Assembly (NCBI GenBank): GCA_016839745.1
Contig: JAEOTS010000075.1
Span: forward strand, 1 to 47,139
DNA from: Promethearchaeota archaeon
Lineage (GTDB): Archaea > Asgardarchaeota > Lokiarchaeia > Sigyniarchaeales > SOKP01
Direction of reading: 5' to 3'
Length of the DNA stretch: 47,139 nucleotides
The notes beneath the pieces are model-generated. The model made no database searches. It saw only the letters and a list, made by a program, of their open reading frames with translations, and was not told the DNA's origin. Every line of letters begins with the position of its first letter. The first letter of the stretch is position 1. The translations under genes were made by a program, and so were the position numbers. Positions 13,003 to 21,159 of the stretch are shown here, one piece after another.

Positions 13003-13917
13003 TTATACCATATTAGCATATTTCATAAGGTCTTTTACTCGCATTCTCAGGGTGACTTCAGTAACACGTGCTAATTTACTAATTTCTTTTTGAGTGCGGT
13101 TTTCGCTACACATTTTGGAGCCTATATAAATAGCTGCCGCGGCAATTCCTTTAGGGTCTTTTCCTGCAGAATTAAAACCACTGTCTTGAGCCTTTTCTAT
13201 TATTTTAACAGCAGTATTTCTACATTGCATTGAAAGTTTTAGTTCGTCGTTAAATTTATCCACATAGCGAATTGGTCCGAAATGTTGGACTTTTAAATTT
13301 AATTTTGGTAAAACTTCCATTAATATTAATCGATAACTCTTAATTACTTTCTTTTTTGGAATTTGAGCAACTTTCGTAATTTCTTCTACCGTTCTTGGAA
13401 TCCCATGAACTCTAAGTGCACAAAAAATGGAAGCTGAGAGGAGAGTATCGATACTCCTTCCCATTGTTAGCTTCTTTTTGACCGTTTGAGTATATATTCT
13501 TAGAGCGTCCTCAGCAACTGTGTCAGGAATGCCTAGTCTTTTTTGTAAACGCTGTAAATTTGGTAAGGCAATCCACAGGTTTCGCTCGAAAGAAGTAGTT
13601 AAGGATCTATGAATTTTTGCAAGTCTATTAAATTTAGATTTATATTTTGGGCTTAATAAAGTCCCTCGTGCATCTCTACTACCTCTAATAATCGTCCGTG
13701 GACCAATAGGACTATAAACCCTTTCGTTACTTTTTCTTTTTTGGATTTCTTCTTGTGTAAAAGCTCTACGCGGTGAATCGTCTAGAATTCTTCCATAGAC
13801 TGAACCGCAATTTAAACATACGTAGAATCCATCTTCCTCACTGATTTTAGGCGAGTCACAACAAGATTCTTCTTCCTTCTCGTCAAAAAATCCATTATCT
13901 TCAAAACTTGACGGCAT
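13003..13917 (-). CDS. tfb: Transcription initiation factor IIB (TFB) paralogue
   Basis: CC...VCLNCG Zn ribbon; ERNL; two cyclin repeats (GRSID...IPRT; GKDPKGIAAAAIY...RTQKEIS..ARVTEVTLR). Confidence 0.93.
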   Translation of the reverse strand: MPSSFEDNGFFDEKEEESCCDSPKISEEDGFYVCLNCGSVYGRILDDSPRRAFTQEEIQKRKSNERVYSPIGPRTIIRGSRDARGTLLSPKYKSKFNRLAKIHRSLTTSFERNLWIALPNLQRLQKRLGIPDTVAEDALRIYTQTVKKKLTMGRSIDTLLSASIFCALRVHGIPRTVEEITKVAQIPKKKVIKSYRLILMEVLPKLNLKVQHFGPIRYVDKFNDELKLSMQCRNTAVKIIEKAQDSGFNSAGKDPKGIAAAAIYIGSKMCSENRTQKEISKLARVTEVTLRMRVKDLMKYANMV

Positions 13918-14138
13918 ATCTACTGTTTAACTTAAATGCAAATATTGGGATTATTCAATTTCAGTATTATATTTAAAATAAACTATATATTTAAATCTTA
14001 ATCAATTTAATTTAATAGCTGTAGTGAAGATTTAAATCTTAGTCTATTTAACTATTATCTTAAAAGATTCGTAAATAATGATTATTTTATTTAAAACTCT
14101 AAAATAATAAATACAAATTAATAAAAATTGTTACCATA

Positions 14139-15389
14139 ATGTCGTCCGATATCGCAAATATTATAAGTATTTTTTCAAAATTTCTCGATCCAAAAGTAAC
14201 CAAAGCAGATAAATTTAAAACCGTTGAGGAAATAAAAAAATTACCCGTTCACTCTTATAAATTTATTTCTAAAAACGATGCTAAAATTTTAAAAGACCTT
14301 CTAAAAATATCCAAAATTGAAGAAATTTCCAAATTGAATAGGGAAAATCCATTCAAAAATTTAAAAATTTTCGGAGAAACAAAGGATCCTCTCGAAGTTA
14401 CCGAATTACAAGAAGAATATGATAGAAAAGTCACTGCCCTTAAAGCAGAGAATCCAGAACTTGAAAAATCCGTAAAGAAAGCAATTTTTATTAGCTCAAT
14501 CATTACCAATATGGTAGACGAGGGAGAGATTCTCCAAAAATCAGCTCAAAAAGTAATCGTAATAGGATTAGATAATGCGGGAAAAACAGCAATTTTGAGC
14601 AAGTTTGGAGGACGGTTAGGTATTAACGATTTAGCAAATTTGACGCCAACTAAGGGGGTAGATCGTCGGCATATCGAAACGGAAAGCTCTGATATAGATC
14701 TTTATATATGGGATTTTGGTGGACAAGCTCAGTATCGAAGCAAATATTTTGATAAACCAGAACAATATTTTCTACAAACTGATTTATTGATCTATGTAAT
14801 TGATGTTCAAGATCCTGAGAGATACGCCGAATCATTTGAGTATTTTGAACAAATACTAGAAATCTTATCGACATTAGAAGAGGAACCATTTGTATTAATA
14901 TATATACATAAATGCGATCCCGATTTAAAACGCGACCCCGAAACCTTATTGAATATCGAACTCCTAAAAGATAACCTCAATCAATTATTAACTACATATG
15001 ACTGCGATTACGAGGCTTATTTGACTTCAATTTTTTCCCTAATAACTAACGAACCTGAGTTTTCGAAATACATTAAGGAAGTTATGAGATCTACTGATTC
15101 TCTAACAAGCCCAACTTTGAGAAAAGTTGAGGGTTTAGGAAAGACTTTAGAGGAAACCATGAATGCTGTTATACGGTTATCAGAAAGCCTTTCTAAACAA
15201 TTATCTGAACTAGATAATAGATTGCGGGCAATTGAAAGTGGTGCATTTCAGATGGCTCAAAGTGGAGTACCAATAAGCTTAGCTCCACCAAACGATCCGT
15301 CAACACCGGGAGGACCTGGTGATTCTAGGACAACTGTTCTAAATGAGTTAAAACAACTATTCGAAAAGAAGCGAAAGCTGAACTTATAA
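14139..15389 (+). CDS. Arf/Rag-like small GTPase with N-terminal helical domain and C-terminal coiled coil/Pro-rich tail
   Basis: G1 GLDNAGKT, G2 PTKG, G3 WDFGGQ, G4 HKCD, G5 TSI. Confidence 0.9.
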   Translation: MSSDIANIISIFSKFLDPKVTKADKFKTVEEIKKLPVHSYKFISKNDAKILKDLLKISKIEEISKLNRENPFKNLKIFGETKDPLEVTELQEEYDRKVTALKAENPELEKSVKKAIFISSIITNMVDEGEILQKSAQKVIVIGLDNAGKTAILSKFGGRLGINDLANLTPTKGVDRRHIETESSDIDLYIWDFGGQAQYRSKYFDKPEQYFLQTDLLIYVIDVQDPERYAESFEYFEQILEILSTLEEEPFVLIYIHKCDPDLKRDPETLLNIELLKDNLNQLLTTYDCDYEAYLTSIFSLITNEPEFSKYIKEVMRSTDSLTSPTLRKVEGLGKTLEETMNAVIRLSESLSKQLSELDNRLRAIESGAFQMAQSGVPISLAPPNDPSTPGGPGDSRTTVLNELKQLFEKKRKLNL

Positions 15390-15399
15390 CTGCTTTTTA

Positions 15400-16116
15400 C
15401 TACTTTTCTTGCTTTCCAATAGCTTCTTGAATCCTTTTGTGAATTGCAAGAACAACTATTACAATTATTAATCCTAGCACTAGAAGTGTATAAAAGATAT
15501 TTTTTAAAAGCAATGGATTAATAATCTGATAATGAATTTGACTCCCAATGATAAGCTCAAAAAATAAGATTACTCTCATCAATAAAGGCGCAACAAAGGT
15601 TATAGCTAAAATAAATCCAAAAAATCCGATGAAAAATCCAAATATGACATCACTCGGGTAATGAACTCCTAATTGAATTCTGGAAAATGATACTATCGCG
15701 GCAAAAATTAAAACTGTAATTGCTATTAACAATGAGTTTAATAAATATGCCAATAACAATCCTTGAGAAACGACATTATATGCGTGCCAAGAAGGAAAAC
15801 TCCTCGATGTTGGTTTTCGCTCGAGAACCTTAATATCTTTTAGTGATTCAAAAGGTCTGTCTCGATTCATACATTTTTTTATTGGAGCAATTATTACGAC
15901 TCCAAGTAAAAATATTGAAGTAATGTGCGAGAATAACAACGGATCATAAAATATAAATAAGTAAAAAACCATTAACAACATCCAAATTGTTTCTCTACCA
16001 AAAAAAGATAGTATTTTTAAAATTATAGTAAATGGTTTTCCTCCAAAACCGTTATATTTTAAAATGACTTTCTGATCCCAAGTATCAAGGTTGTTAAAGA
16101 TTTTTTTGGTTTCCAT
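15400..16116 (-). CDS. PAP2-family membrane phosphatase
   Basis: KKCMNRDRP, SFPSWH, SRIQLGVHYPSDV motifs. Confidence 0.92.
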   Translation of the reverse strand: METKKIFNNLDTWDQKVILKYNGFGGKPFTIILKILSFFGRETIWMLLMVFYLFIFYDPLLFSHITSIFLLGVVIIAPIKKCMNRDRPFESLKDIKVLERKPTSRSFPSWHAYNVVSQGLLLAYLLNSLLIAITVLIFAAIVSFSRIQLGVHYPSDVIFGFFIGFFGFILAITFVAPLLMRVILFFELIIGSQIHYQIINPLLLKNIFYTLLVLGLIIVIVVLAIHKRIQEAIGKQEK

Positions 16117-16130
16117 GTTTTTTGCGCCCT

Positions 16131-16925
16131 TTAATTAATCAACCCTAAAAATTCATAAGCTTGTTTTACTTTGGGAATTGTTTCTTCAAAAAATTCGAGC
16201 GAATGTGAATCGGAGCCAATGAAGAATTTCGCACGTTCTGATTTTAATTGCTTTACAACTTCCTTAGAAGGGAAGGAGCGATTGATAGGAAATCTTATTC
16301 CAGACAAATTATATTCTATGCGAACTTTATTTTTGATGCATAATCTACCAAGATTTAGAACTCTCTCTTCTGTAGTATCACAATCATCCGAAGGTTTTAG
16401 GTCATTTTCGTTAATATAGCGGTAAATTGTATCTAGATGACATACATTCTTAAAGATTTTTGATTCAATCATCATTTTATACACCTTAAAGTAATCGTCT
16501 ATCACCTGCTTCATTTGTATCTTTTCTAATAATTCTACTAATTTTGCTCTACTTGTTATAGGGTAATTGAAAATCCATTCATGAACTGTCCCTCCTATAA
16601 AGTCCAAATCTTTTTCATAATCGTCCATGAACTCCCTCAGTTCAGTTTCCCTGTCCTGGTAATATTCAACTTCAAGTCCACCAAGGATACCATTATAATT
16701 CTCTTTTAATTGGTCAATTTCTTCTAGATAATCATCTATTTTACTATTATAAAACGGATTTGTCTTATCTCGTTCAATGTAGTATAATTCATAATGTTCA
16801 AGAAAACAGATATTAATTCTATTTTTTTCAGCAATTTCTAAATAATCGTTGAAGACCGGACCATTTTCTTGAATATCTGCGCTCCATTTGGTATGGACGT
16901 GATAATCTGTATATTTAAAATTCAT
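16131..16925 (-). CDS. PHP-domain phosphatase (histidinol-phosphatase HisK-like)
   Basis: DYHVHT, LEH, GLEVEY, GTVH, HLD, GSDSH. Confidence 0.85.
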   Translation of the reverse strand: MNFKYTDYHVHTKWSADIQENGPVFNDYLEIAEKNRINICFLEHYELYYIERDKTNPFYNSKIDDYLEEIDQLKENYNGILGGLEVEYYQDRETELREFMDDYEKDLDFIGGTVHEWIFNYPITSRAKLVELLEKIQMKQVIDDYFKVYKMMIESKIFKNVCHLDTIYRYINENDLKPSDDCDTTEERVLNLGRLCIKNKVRIEYNLSGIRFPINRSFPSKEVVKQLKSERAKFFIGSDSHSLEFFEETIPKVKQAYEFLGLIN

Positions 16926-16974: not shown

Positions 16975-18873
16975 TTATTCCATCGAATTTTCCTTGTCGA
17001 AAAATACTTCGTAAAAAAGTTCCTTTTCTCCCGCTTCTGGAGGTTTAATCTTAGTATAACCCCCTTTTCTGATGATCTGTACTGTGCTTTTATTTTGAAT
17101 GTGAATATTGCCATAGAAGCCTTTTATTCCCTTTTCTTTCGCTATAATGATTAAATGTTGATATAAAAAAGAACCCAAGCCTTTTCCGCGATAATCTTCC
17201 CTTACTAAAAAACTATACTCCGCCATATTGAGTTGAAGATTAAGGTAATAGGTAGCGTTCCCGATCATTTCTTCACTCCCAATTTCACCAAGAAAAGCTC
17301 CAATTGAAAACACATTGTTATAGTCGATATTTACTTCACTTTGCGTCTTAGAATGGGTAAATTCTTTTCTTACTTCGAAAAATCTTAAGTATCTGTCTGT
17401 TTCATTCAAAGAATAATACATTTCTTTTAATAATGGTTCGTCAGTAGGCTTAACCGGGCGAATTTTAACCTTCTCTCCTCCCCGTAGAGTCGATATAGTC
17501 TCATATTCTGAAGGATATCTACATATTCTTCCTTCATCGTCACACGGTAATATTTGATCTGAATAAATATAATTCAGTTTCTTTGCTTCATCCAATAGCC
17601 ATTTTCTAAAATTTGGATGAGCAACACAGATAAGTTCAAGAACTCGCTCTCGAATGGTTTTTCCATGGAGATATGCTATACCCCATTCAGTTATTATATA
17701 GTGCACGTCTCCTCGAGACAACATTACTCCCGCACCTTCATCTAAATGTGGTAAAATCCTAGATTTCTTGCCATCACGAGATGTGGAAGGCATAATTATG
17801 ATTGGTTTCCCTCCTTTAGAAAAAGCAGCTCCTCTCATGAAATCTATAGTCTCTCCAATTCCAGAATAAAATCCATAACCCTCTGTTGCTGCATTAATCT
17901 GCCCAGTTAGATCTATTTGTCGAGCGGAATTAATTGAGACCATTTTCTTGTTCTTTCCTATATATATTGGATTACATACATAATCTGATGGATAAAATTC
18001 AATATAGGGATTATTATTAACAAAATCATACAACTTTTTGGAGCCTAGTGCAAAACTTGTGATAATTTTTTCGGGGTGAAAATTCTTTTTTCGACTAGTT
18101 AAGACTCCTTTTTCTATAAGTGGGATGATGTTGTCAGTGACATAATGTGAATGCATCCCTAAACTCTTTTTATTTCCTAAATATTTTAATACTGCATTTG
18201 GTAAGTCCCCAAATCCTACATGAATGGTGGATTTATTTTCTACTATGTTTGCGAGATTCTTGCCTATTCTCTCAGCAATTTCATCAGGTTCATCAAAGTG
18301 AAATTCTAATAAAGGAACATCGTTCAAAACAAAATAATCAATTTCTTTCATATGGATAAAGCTATTACCTAAAGTTCTTGGCATTTGAGGATTTATCTCC
18401 ACTATAGTTAAATAAGCCGATTGGGCTAATGGTTTAGCGATATCAACATTAATACCAAGAGAGCAAAAACCATTAGAATCTGGAGGTGTTACTTGTATAA
18501 GTGCAACATCAATATGCTTTTTACCAGTTAAAAAAAGCTCTGGGATCTCACTGGCATAAATTGGTGTGTAATCTGCTTGTCCCTTATTTATTTCCTCGCG
18601 AAGTGTCTTTCCGATGAATAGGGCATTATGCCTAAAAAGGTCTTCAGCCTTATCTGTGAAATACTTCTCAGGACCAATAGTTAAAAAGTGGAGTATTTCG
18701 GTATCAATTAACTTTTCTGATTGCTTTATTAATTCTGATGTAAGTAATTGTGGTTCCGAGCATCCAGAGCCTATGAAAACTCTATTACCTGGAATAATTT
18801 TATTAATTGCATTTTCGGCGGTGATTTCTTTATCCTTCCATTTTTTACTCCATTCTCCATTTAGATAATCCAA
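16975..18873 (-). CDS. Acetyl-CoA hydrolase/4-hydroxybutyrate CoA-transferase-fold domain fused to C-terminal Pat-type GNAT acetyltransferase
   Basis: DVALIQVTPPD..GFCSLG, NPQMPRT, IDLTGQ, DFMRGA, TEWGIA; GNAT IRP..P.D, YLRFF, IDY, AEYS, YRGKGLG; GAGGTG before TTG. Confidence 0.9.
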   Translation of the reverse strand: MDYLNGEWSKKWKDKEITAENAINKIIPGNRVFIGSGCSEPQLLTSELIKQSEKLIDTEILHFLTIGPEKYFTDKAEDLFRHNALFIGKTLREEINKGQADYTPIYASEIPELFLTGKKHIDVALIQVTPPDSNGFCSLGINVDIAKPLAQSAYLTIVEINPQMPRTLGNSFIHMKEIDYFVLNDVPLLEFHFDEPDEIAERIGKNLANIVENKSTIHVGFGDLPNAVLKYLGNKKSLGMHSHYVTDNIIPLIEKGVLTSRKKNFHPEKIITSFALGSKKLYDFVNNNPYIEFYPSDYVCNPIYIGKNKKMVSINSARQIDLTGQINAATEGYGFYSGIGETIDFMRGAAFSKGGKPIIIMPSTSRDGKKSRILPHLDEGAGVMLSRGDVHYIITEWGIAYLHGKTIRERVLELICVAHPNFRKWLLDEAKKLNYIYSDQILPCDDEGRICRYPSEYETISTLRGGEKVKIRPVKPTDEPLLKEMYYSLNETDRYLRFFEVRKEFTHSKTQSEVNIDYNNVFSIGAFLGEIGSEEMIGNATYYLNLQLNMAEYSFLVREDYRGKGLGSFLYQHLIIIAKEKGIKGFYGNIHIQNKSTVQIIRKGGYTKIKPPEAGEKELFYEVFFDKENSME

Positions 18874-18966
18874 TTAAGCCACCTCGCGATTCTTGTTTTA
18901 TTCTATTATTTCCTTTATTCCCAAAAAATAGTTAATTCGTATATCTTTAATATTTTTACTTTAATT

Positions 18967-18984
18967 ATTTGAAATTTTTCAAAT
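18967..18984. promoter_or_regulatory. Inverted repeat ATTTGAAA-TT-TTTCAAAT in the divergent GNAT/acs intergenic region
   Basis: Perfect 8-bp arms; AT-rich so may be chance. Confidence 0.25.
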
Positions 18985-19176
18985 TATAAAATCTTCTCAA
19001 ATAAAACTAATCTCTATATTTTAGAAATAAATATGTTAAAGGTGTTGGAAAAAAAACCTACATCTCCCATTTCTTAATAAATTAAATATAAAATGTTTAA
19101 ATTAAATTCGATATATTTCCTAATCAAGAAACTATTACATTACAAATAAAGAAGAAATTCAAATTAGTGAAATATT

Positions 19177-21159
19177 ATGTCAGAAAAAGACAAAAAAATG
19201 GAAAGCGTATTAACTGAAACTCGGATATTCGATCCAGTAGAAATCAGTCCCGACTATGCTAAGACTGGAATGTCAATGGATGAATACAAAAAGTTATACA
19301 AACAATCTATTGAGGATATGGAAGGATTCTGGGGTGAACAAGCTAAATCGCTCGATTGGTTCAAACCCTATGATAAAGTTTGGGAAAAAACCGACCTGTT
19401 CCCCGGGAAGTGGTTTGTCGGTGGAAAACTCAATGTTGCTTACAATTGTATTGATAGGCATGTAAATGCAGGAAATGGAGACCGTGTTGCTATTATATGG
19501 GAAGCAGATGAACCCGGCCAGGTCAGAAAATTTACTTACAACGAACTTTTAAAAGAAGTAAGTAAAGTTGCCAATGCTATGAGAAGTAAAGGACTTAAAA
19601 AAGGTGATCGCGTTACAATTTGGTTACCTATGATTCCTGAATTGGCTATTATTATGCTGGCTTGCGCTCGAATTGGTGTTATCCACTCAATCGTCTTCGG
19701 TGGTTTCTCAAAAGAAGCTGTGAAAGACAGAATTGAAGACTCAGATTCACGTCTATTATTTACGAGCGACGAAACTTTAAGAGGGGGCAAAACTTATCCT
19801 AAAATGGCTGATGTTCTTCAAATAATAGATAAAGTGCCAACGATTGAACATGTTATAGTCGTTAAGCGATCGGGTAACGAGGTTCCTCACACGGATAAGG
19901 ATATCTGGTATCACGATTTTATCGATGGTATGAGTGAAGAGTGTGAACCTGAACAAATGGATTCGGAAGATACGTTATTTATACTCTATACAAGCGGAAC
20001 CACCGGAAAACCTAAGGGTGTTAAACATACGACAGCAGGTTATATCCTATATACATCATTCACTCACAGAACCGTATTCAACTACAAAGAAGGCGAAGTT
20101 TGGTATTGTACCGCAGACATAGGATGGATTACCGGACATAGTTATATCGTTTATGGACCATTAGCAAATGGAGCGACAACTTTAATGTTTGAAAGCGTAC
20201 CAACTTATCCCGATGTAGATCGATTTTGGGATATTGTAGAACGCCATAAGGTAAACCAATTTTATACAGCTCCAACCGCTATACGTGCTCTTATGAGACA
20301 CGGCGATGAACCAGTAAATAGACACGATTTAAGCTCTTTGAAAGTATTAGGCACTGTTGGAGAACCAATAAATCCCGAAGCCTGGACATGGTATCACCGT
20401 GTTGTCGGAAAAGAACGATGTCCTATCGTAGATACATATTGGCAAACTGAAACGGGTGGATTTATTATGACACCAATCGCAACGGCCACCCCTACTAAAC
20501 CAGGATCCTGTTGCATGCCCTTTCTCGGCATCAAACCAGTTATTTTTGATTTAGAAGGTGACGAAATCACCGAAGCAAACGAAGGTGGATATTTTGCAAT
20601 GGGACAACCCTGGCCTGGTATGCTACGCGATGTTTGGGGTGATACTGAGCGTTTTAAATCAACTTATCTCGAAAAATATGCCGGACATTATTACACTGGT
20701 GATGGAGCAAGACGTGATGAAGATGGTTATTACTGGATTCTTGGACGATTAGATGATGTTATTAAAGTTTCAGGGCATCGTATAGGTACAATGGAAGTGG
20801 AATCTGCAATTGTTAGTCATCCTAAGGTAGCAGAAGCTGCTGTAGCACCTTTTCCACACAAAATAAAGGGACAAGCTATTTGGGCGTTCGTGACATTAAT
20901 GGGTGGCGTTGAAAAATCGGCGAAATTATCGAAGGAGCTCCGAATGCATGTTAGACAAGAGATTGGGCCAGTGTTTCAGCCAGATGTAATACAGTTTGCT
21001 GATGCATTACCTAAAACGCGAAGTGGTAAGATTATGCGCAGAATTCTTAAAGCCATAGCCTCAGGAACAGAAATAGGCAATGTTACGACCTTAGCCGATC
21101 CTTCAGTAGTCGATGTATTACTTGAAGATCGTAAGAAAATAGATGTCGAAGTAGGTTAA
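19177..21159 (+). CDS. acs: AMP-forming acetyl-CoA synthetase
   Basis: YTSGTTGKPKG, ADIGWITGHSY, DTYWQTETGG, GRLDDVIKVSGHR, LPKTRSGKIMRR. Confidence 0.97.
   Translation: MSEKDKKMESVLTETRIFDPVEISPDYAKTGMSMDEYKKLYKQSIEDMEGFWGEQAKSLDWFKPYDKVWEKTDLFPGKWFVGGKLNVAYNCIDRHVNAGNGDRVAIIWEADEPGQVRKFTYNELLKEVSKVANAMRSKGLKKGDRVTIWLPMIPELAIIMLACARIGVIHSIVFGGFSKEAVKDRIEDSDSRLLFTSDETLRGGKTYPKMADVLQIIDKVPTIEHVIVVKRSGNEVPHTDKDIWYHDFIDGMSEECEPEQMDSEDTLFILYTSGTTGKPKGVKHTTAGYILYTSFTHRTVFNYKEGEVWYCTADIGWITGHSYIVYGPLANGATTLMFESVPTYPDVDRFWDIVERHKVNQFYTAPTAIRALMRHGDEPVNRHDLSSLKVLGTVGEPINPEAWTWYHRVVGKERCPIVDTYWQTETGGFIMTPIATATPTKPGSCCMPFLGIKPVIFDLEGDEITEANEGGYFAMGQPWPGMLRDVWGDTERFKSTYLEKYAGHYYTGDGARRDEDGYYWILGRLDDVIKVSGHRIGTMEVESAIVSHPKVAEAAVAPFPHKIKGQAIWAFVTLMGGVEKSAKLSKELRMHVRQEIGPVFQPDVIQFADALPKTRSGKIMRRILKAIASGTEIGNVTTLADPSVVDVLLEDRKKIDVEVG

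Follow-up and report, generated by a model that had tools for sequence, protein, structure and literature searches.

A putative Acs-directed lysine acetyltransferase with a CoA-transferase-like accessory domain in an Asgard archaeon

Described acetyltransferase systems and the Asgard locus

Reversible acetylation of acetyl-CoA synthetase (Acs) is textbook metabolic control by lysine acylation in bacteria; to our knowledge, little has been learned about this modification in archaea at large and nothing in the Asgard group. This work deals with a gene from an Asgard archaeon (Promethearchaeota archaeon, assembly GCA_016839745.1, genome completeness 89%) in which a coenzyme A (CoA)-transferase-like domain is fused to an acetyltransferase domain of the GNAT family, and which lies head-to-head with acs on contig JAEOTS010000075.1 (contig C41 in our numbering). 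The whole stretch analysed, 47,139 nucleotides, is referred to as the window. On balance, the product is probably a Pat-like lysine acetyltransferase directed at Acs, with a non-catalytic domain of CoA-transferase fold as its regulatory part.

The closest described relatives of the acetyltransferase domain are the Type I/II Pat enzymes (Pat of Salmonella enterica, PatZ/YfiQ of Escherichia coli, PDB 9IT0/9ISQ, and PatA of Streptomyces lividans, 4NXY/4U5Y), which work together with the CobB sirtuin. The window protein resembles them in its GNAT domain, whose homology (E 2e-17 to 1e-14) takes in the segment ahead of the core as well as the acetyl-CoA loop and the general-base Glu, and also in the presumed Acs target and the presence of sirtuin genes in the genome. 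In contrast, those enzymes measure about 886 aa and their accessory part is an acyl-CoA synthetase of the nucleoside diphosphate (NDP)-forming type, whereas the 632-aa window protein carries a family I CoA-transferase fold; furthermore, its gene is paired head-to-head with acs and its host is an archaeon. Type III Pat enzymes, comprising the mycobacterial cyclic AMP (cAMP)-GNAT proteins (4ORF/4AVA), the ACT-GNAT proteins and MxKat with its NADP-Rossmann domain, likewise have an N-terminal regulatory domain of 300-400 aa before a Pat-type GNAT, and they are known to act on Acs. Their sensors are genuine binders of small ligands and belong to other folds, while the module of the window protein appears to be a pseudoenzyme without a known ligand.

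The N-terminal part of the fusion is closest to the 4-hydroxybutyrate and butyryl-CoA:acetate CoA-transferases (AbfT, 3GK7; 2OAS; RipA, 3QLI; PF02550 plus PF13336), with which it shares the fold (template modelling (TM) score 0.93-0.94) and 36-41% identity. It departs from this family in that the nucleophile Glu, the GGQ loop, an Asn and the gate residue are replaced and a GNAT domain is fused. With regard to gene order, the nearest parallel is AcuA-AcuB-AcuC of Bacillus, in which an acetyltransferase gene is divergent from acs(A) and a deacetylase acts as partner (PMC11255334, PMC13121692). AcuA, however, belongs to another GNAT subtype and stands alone, its regulators acting in trans, and the window holds no deacetylase gene.

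A review of bacterial lysine acetyltransferases distinguishes five types and lists dead NDP-forming synthetase, cAMP, NADP and ACT domains as regulatory modules, with no CoA-transferase among them (PMC8556138). The regulatory module described here is absent from that five-type classification. No paper on the CoA-transferase-GNAT architecture was found in the literature searched, the coverage of which was incomplete, so that absence is not proven.

A CoA-transferase fold with a replaced active site

The fusion gene (16975..18873, minus strand) has a TTG start and encodes 632 aa plus stop; orthologues of 628-640 aa span residues 1-632. Residues 1-440 (17554..18873, minus strand) constitute the CoA-transferase-like domain and residues 469-632 (16978..17469, minus strand) the GNAT domain, with Pfam matches to AcetylCoA_hydro at 7-188, AcetylCoA_hyd_C at 277-430 and GNAT at 469-606. 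A first-pass annotation, made by a model from the DNA letters, had named a set of motifs in the two proteins, and each of these was recovered where it had been placed, in Acs as well as in the fusion (IHVGFG 217-222, LGMHSHY 238-244, SGIGET 337-342, YLRFF 495-499, NIDY, MAEYSF 550-555 and RGKGLG 562-567).

The fold assignment is supported at several levels. Five 4-hydroxybutyrate CoA-transferases were matched at E 6e-117 to 9e-95 in a phmmer search against PDB sequences, with 9vag, 3eh7 and 3d3u at 6e-117 to 3e-101, and both Pfam halves of the two-domain alpha/beta fold, PF02550 and PF13336, were detected (E 1e-29 and 6e-59). An AlphaFold2 model built from 47 sequences (mean predicted local distance difference test (pLDDT) 87.6, predicted TM score 0.80) was superposed by Foldseek on 2OAS with a TM score of 0.94 and a root-mean-square deviation of 1.7 A, and on 3GK7 with a TM score of 0.93. 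The score against the equivalog model of butyryl-CoA:acetate CoA-transferase (TIGR03948) was 247 bits, below the cut-off of 674.8.

In the printed alignments His243 stands under the Glu of LG[IV]HTEM, GET under GGQ and HVGFG under Q[ML]GIG. The family signature LG[IV]H[ST]E is broken at its last residue, as His243 (codon CAT, 18145..18147, minus strand) replaces the catalytic nucleophile Glu; this substitution had been proposed in the first-pass annotation, and HMMER alignment to solved 4-hydroxybutyrate CoA-transferases bears it out. The external oxyanion-hole loop GxGGQ reads SGIGET, with Glu341 (17851..17853, minus strand) for the second Gly and Thr342 for the Gln. Moreover, His218 (18220..18222, minus strand) replaces the family Gln of LQxGIG, Phe221 (18211..18213, minus strand) stands at the tip of the G-x-G gate loop where active enzymes have Ile or Val (Val270 in AarC, Val227 in RipA), and Cys300 (17974..17976, minus strand) replaces a family Asn that probably corresponds to Asn347 of AarC, the residue of the internal oxyanion hole. 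In the class I enzyme AarC, Glu294 is the nucleophile, the Gly388 N, strictly conserved in the superfamily, forms the external and Asn347 the internal oxyanion hole, and Val270 acts as gate (PMC4876117); in RipA the same Glu is Glu249 and the gate loop is Gly-Val227-Gly (PMC3180442). Alignment offsets (query 217 = AarC 266) set Val270 against Phe221; the same offsets, rather than a printed alignment, make Asn347 the probable counterpart of Cys300 and Gly388 that of Glu341.

Among 45 unfused, Glu-bearing cluster representatives taken as reference, 63 positions are at least 85% conserved, and the window protein keeps 55 of them. The eight changes (D213N, G214K, Q218H, E243H, N300C, G341E, Q342T and V374L) are concentrated in the catalytic centre, where all four active-site elements are hit (E243H, G341E/Q342T, N300C and Q218H); D213N and G214K lie just upstream in the same motif as Q218H, and V374L is the sole change outside these elements. 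With the nucleophile, the gate residue and both elements of the oxyanion hole replaced, the glutamyl-CoA ping-pong mechanism would be impossible, and CoA transfer has very probably been abolished in this domain. The view that the domain is devoid of the canonical catalytic apparatus was therefore upheld, the loss extending past the Glu.

The replacements are shared by the orthologues: in a set of 72 full-length sequences, His218 and Cys300 were each found in 71, His243 in 68 (Tyr or Leu in the remainder) and an acidic residue, Glu or Asp, at position 341 in all 72. Mean pairwise identity was 0.807 for the pseudo-transferase domain, compared with 0.826 for the corresponding domain of a Glu-intact paralogue and 0.788 for the fusion's own GNAT. 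Because the replacements are near-invariant and identity is close to that of the intact paralogue, the domain is, judging from these comparisons, a CoA-transfer pseudoenzyme still under strong purifying selection, in which the replacements are fixed and do not represent decay.

This paralogue is encoded by a second fused gene in the same genome (C93:18004-19899), 50% identical to the window fusion, which keeps the canonical IQMGIG, LGVHSEV and SGIGGQ. A Sir2 gene precedes it at a distance of 33 bp and an ACT-domain gene follows; these three co-directional genes (C93:17408-20687, or L036:9408-12687 in the locus set) make up a candidate writer-eraser operon.

Close relatives of the window fusion at 74-93% identity are abundant in Asgard assemblies, and 269 of 400 genomes of the phylum give a match to a fused member of the family with E no higher than 1e-20. 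The fusion occurs as well in Desulfobacterales, Planctomycetes, Myxococcales and Syntrophobacteraceae, in agreement with the earlier remark that it is also present in anaerobic bacteria. In a FastTree phylogeny of the transferase domains the query grouped with P0123, then with P0130/P0144 and then with the clade of the Glu-intact paralogue, the Asgard-centred group having a support of 97. P0123 has Phe at 243 and Asp at 341 and shares His218 with the query, while P0130 and P0144 keep the Glu and have a GGE loop; according to this branching order, the Glu was lost after the fusion had formed. Both Glu and GGQ are kept in 19 of 76 fused versus 42 of 68 unfused cluster representatives, a sample biased by its selection on similarity to the window protein.

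Two further variations were observed in the family. A well-supported unfused clade (P0223-P0228, P0245-P0249, P0255 and P0267) has Gly or a gap at the catalytic Glu (LG[IV]HSG[MSI]) and keeps GGQ, and some fused relatives have an extra domain of ~340 aa at either the N- or the C-terminus (P0127 and P0134, ~960 aa; P0162, P0173 and P0207, 955-1013 aa).

The acetyltransferase domain and its linkage to acs

Residues 445-607 of the fusion matched E. coli PatZ (9IT0/9ISQ) at E 2e-17, S. lividans PatA (4NXY/4U5Y) at 1e-14 and mycobacterial Pat (4ORF) at 2e-8. Glu552, within MAEYSF, aligns with the general-base Glu of PatZ, PatA and MsPat (AEF, AEV and MAEVAF), and RGKGLG (562-567) with KGLGLG of PatZ and QGRGV of PatA; this is the GNAT motif A loop R/Q-x-x-G-x-G/A, which binds acetyl-CoA (PMC8556138). 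With both features kept, the previous assignment of the domain to the Pat type was corroborated. The model superposes with a Foldseek TM score of 0.92 on chain A of 4U5Y, the PatA GNAT crystallised with the C-terminal domain of Acs. The score against NF058543 (mycobacterial Pat) was 48 bits, below the cut-off of 460, making the protein kin to that family but not a member, and no counterpart of the N-terminal accessory domain of Pat-type enzymes was detected, the CoA-transferase fold standing in its place.

The acs gene (19177..21159, plus strand; 660 aa) is separated from the fusion gene by a 303-bp AT-rich spacer (18874..19176), from which both genes diverge, so that the head-to-head arrangement reported at first sight is correct. 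Its product scored 960 bits against TIGR02188 (cut-off 725) and has the Lys of the A10 motif, in PKTRSGK (612-618). This residue, Lys618 (21028..21030, plus strand), aligns with Lys609 of Salmonella Acs, the acetylated residue, as had been predicted from the PX4GK motif. Conversely, the Leu of TLADP (638-642) had been taken as the key downstream Leu by mistake: in the alignment (1PG3/2P2F numbering) Leu639 corresponds to Salmonella Leu632, and the equivalent of Leu641 is Leu648 (21118..21120, plus strand; VDVLLED). Both Leu639 and Leu648 are invariant in 39 Acs orthologues. The C-terminal domain of the window's Acs matches chain D of 4U5Y (E 2e-45). No second Acs was found by tblastn of the whole genome, which is 89% complete, and about 12 other genes for AMP-forming ligases were detected in it at 21-32% identity. 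As to candidate erasers, the genome encodes three Sir2 proteins (contigs C35, C82 and C93) and two deacetylases of the histone deacetylase (HDAC) type; the Sir2 gene on C82 adjoins two paralogues of AMP-forming acyl-CoA ligases (C82:4066-8222).

Gene linkage was scored in 154 loci from species-representative genomes, scanned by tblastn. In the clade of His-type fusions acs was located within 5 kb in 43 of the 48 loci that extended 2.5 kb or more upstream and was divergent in 41, and it was not found beside the Glu-intact fused paralogue in any of 44 loci. The gap between acs and the fusion measures mostly 147-404 bp in orthologous loci (overall range 147-2834 bp), the larger gaps containing unrelated genes such as those for CAAX-protease-like and TPR-TIR proteins; the pair persists despite these occasional insertions and despite differing genes on the far side of acs. 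In the closest relatives (L037:1986-4349 and L038:3339-4115) the spacer holds genes for a 787-aa TPR-TIR protein and a CAAX-protease-like protein, and it seems to be an insertion hot spot. Among 17 bacterial and other distant loci, 16 of them fused, an Acs orthologue was present 650 bp downstream in one (L182, Desulfobacteraceae) and AMP-ligase paralogues near three; acs was not found within 5 kb in three planctomycete loci, and nothing relevant was detected near a fused member from Desulfobacterales. Presence across the family (both genes in 96 genomes, the fusion alone in 17, acs alone in 6 and neither in 16) was discounted as evidence, as the genes are adjacent and a missing contig removes both, several exceptions being contig ends (G164, G234).

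A natural domain deletion bears on the role of each half. In genus g2, another member of this family, acs is present (73% identity) but the His-type fusion is not; in all three of its acs-bearing genomes (G149, G145 and G146) a stand-alone GNAT of 193 aa is encoded ~205 bp from acs in divergent orientation. This protein is 56% identical (E 1e-70) to window residues 453-628, including the C-terminal tail, and 42% identical to the paralogue, and its surroundings differ, with DnaJ, DnaK and OsmC to one side and, to the other, peroxiredoxin, desulfoferrodoxin and rubrerythrin. A GNAT-domain phylogeny computed with IQ-TREE joined the GNAT-only proteins (support 99) as sister group to the His-type clade (92) and left the fused P0123 outside both (99). 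Since a fused protein is the outgroup, the short form would most simply have arisen by loss of the transferase domain. Because the GNAT-only orthologues keep the pairing with acs, it is the GNAT that is linked to acs, the pseudo-transferase being accessory.

A 177-aa open reading frame upstream of the GNAT-only genes was considered as a remnant of the CoA-transferase domain and rejected. In another genome, G147 (L221, G147:C51, compared with L214, G149:C2), one deletion of ~3.6 kb removed acs entirely, along with the peroxiredoxin gene and the 5' portion of the GNAT gene, of which 40 codons survive as a relic flanked by OsmC and desulfoferrodoxin; the joint loss of the GNAT gene and acs was rejected as functional evidence, given that this single event also took the peroxiredoxin gene.

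The acs orthologues of related genomes showed a feature of their own, not present in the acs of the window: insertions of 30-60 nt that bring in stops or frame shifts and whose removal restores the conserved Acs sequence exactly, e.g. YWQ|TETGG. Inserts of 30 nt follow codon 423 in L087, L090, L105, L110 and L097/L169; additional ones occur in L110 (32 nt at codon 314, 60 nt at 346 and 30 nt at 400), L071 (33 nt at 348 and 32 nt at 506) and L105 (30 nt at 398). The inserts at codon 423 differ in sequence in five genomes, each with its own hairpin maintained by compensatory changes. From their sequences they look like mini-introns of the archaeal bulge-helix-bulge type within a protein-coding gene, and not like marks of pseudogenes; for Asgard archaea, the literature searched yielded work on tRNA introns only.

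On the other side of the fusion, ~50 bp downstream and on the same strand, lies a gene for a PHP-domain protein similar to HisJ-family histidinol-phosphatases (16131..16925, minus strand), a conserved neighbour without a known functional link. Further on, a block of Arf/Rag-like GTPase and TFIIB genes (13003-16116 in the window; loci L001-L004, L217 and L218) adjoins the acetyltransferase gene, whether fused or GNAT-only, and a PAP2 gene also intervenes between this block and the acetyltransferase gene in fused loci.

Proposed function and alternative explanations

Taking the bacterial Pat/Acs pair as a guide, the C-terminal GNAT would acetylate Lys618 of Acs with acetyl-CoA, the modification would block adenylate formation, and one of the three sirtuins or two HDAC-type deacetylases may reverse it, while the N-terminal 440 residues, a family I CoA-transferase fold of the 4-hydroxybutyrate type turned pseudoenzyme, would serve as accessory regulatory module. 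The parts of this proposal are of unequal strength. A functional tie between the GNAT and Acs is probable, and Acs is most likely the substrate, based on gene linkage and on the resemblance of the GNAT and of Acs to the two chains that make up 4U5Y. Ligand binding and allostery by the dead domain are what we infer for its contribution, and the suggestion that the ligand sensed is an acyl-CoA, or a carboxylate as the first-pass annotation allowed, is a tentative one.

Several observations weigh against the proposal of an Acs-directed acetyltransferase with a sensory dead domain. It is drawn from genes and a predicted structure, and the pairing of GNAT-only orthologues with acs, for which the dead domain is not needed, weakens the claim that this domain is a key sensor. 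The linkage to acs comes from one GTDB family, i.e., from kin loci representing few independent events, and local synteny is generally high, the PHP gene following the His-type fusion in 68 of 73 loci and being just as syntenic as acs. Neither in P0123 nor in three other fused clades with altered sites is acs adjacent; three of these four clades are devoid of the Glu and P0130 keeps it with GGE in place of GGQ, and the neighbours are malic enzyme in P0123, YjeF in P0128 (Heimdall-labelled), citrate synthase in P0149 and DnaK in P0130. Two metagenomic GNAT-only loci did not have acs within 5 kb and occupy the ancestral place beside Arf-like GTPase and TFIIB genes. In addition, the Sir2 gene next to the Glu-intact paralogue was found in one genus (10 loci at identities of at least 86%). 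The first-pass annotation had singled out active-site loss together with acs linkage; the linkage stands as a conserved trait of one Asgard family (43/48), because other altered-site fused clades are not beside acs, whereas the association of Glu loss with acs adjacency did not extend to other clades (P0123, P0128, P0282, P0149 and P0130 being negative).

These observations bear on the explanation that the GNAT acts mainly on other proteins or on a small molecule and that its position next to acs is inherited synteny without regulatory meaning. The equal synteny of the PHP gene, the fused clades and the two GNAT-only loci away from acs, and the ~12 other AMP-forming ligases as possible targets speak in its favor, as does the location of E. 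coli pat, which we take not to be beside acs, adjacency thus not being needed for function. Nonetheless, the divergent pairing has outlasted the loss of a domain and the move to a new neighbourhood in genus g2, as well as insertions of unrelated genes; the Glu-intact paralogue is never found next to acs; and the GNAT and Acs resemble both chains of the PatA-GNAT/Acs complex. This explanation is considered unlikely. A similarly low probability is given to the dead domain being a scaffold for dimerisation or oligomerisation that binds no metabolite and presents two or more GNATs. Such a role would be in line with the dimeric or tetrameric state of 4-hydroxybutyrate CoA-transferases and RipA (PMC3180442), with the dependence of Pat activity on oligomerisation through the N-terminal domain (PMC8556138) and with the dispensability of the domain in the GNAT-only lineage, but scaffolding alone explains neither the near-invariance of the remodelled pocket residues nor the retention of 55 of 63 family-conserved positions.

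That near-invariance can also be turned against a passive pocket, as His218, His241, His243, Cys300 and Glu/Asp341 could signal a new active or metal site. The CoA-transferase-like domain would then have been re-tooled into a catalytic or metal (Zn/Fe) centre, for instance an acyl-CoA thioesterase or a deacylase, and the protein would be bifunctional (hydrolysis of acyl-CoA or acyl-lysine) or responsive to metal or redox state while controlling Acs. Consistent with it are the fixation of the replacements, the presence of His218 and Asp341 in the sister protein P0123 and a constraint as strong as that on the intact paralogue's domain. A change of Glu to Asp, moreover, converts glutaconate CoA-transferase into a hydrolase, and Asp occupies the nucleophile position in 14 of the 76 fused representatives. 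On the other hand, no other case of His in the nucleophile position of a CoA-transferase is known to us; model confidence drops at residues 331-340 (pLDDT 65); and the external oxyanion Gly, strictly conserved in class I CoA-transferases (PMC4876117), bears a side chain here. A re-tooled centre of either kind is accordingly considered improbable.

Were such a re-tooled pocket to prove true, the active site of a CoA-transferase would have turned into something as yet undescribed. With an Acs-directed acetyltransferase as the preferred reading, the locus presents a pair of writer and substrate open to direct testing, in the prokaryotes most closely related to eukaryotes, and nature provides the controls, namely the Glu-intact fused paralogue beside a sirtuin gene in the same genome and the GNAT-only orthologue paired with acs in a sister genus. 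Set side by side with these two proteins, the dead fusion would reveal how an acetyltransferase is altered by the addition of a pseudo-CoA-transferase.

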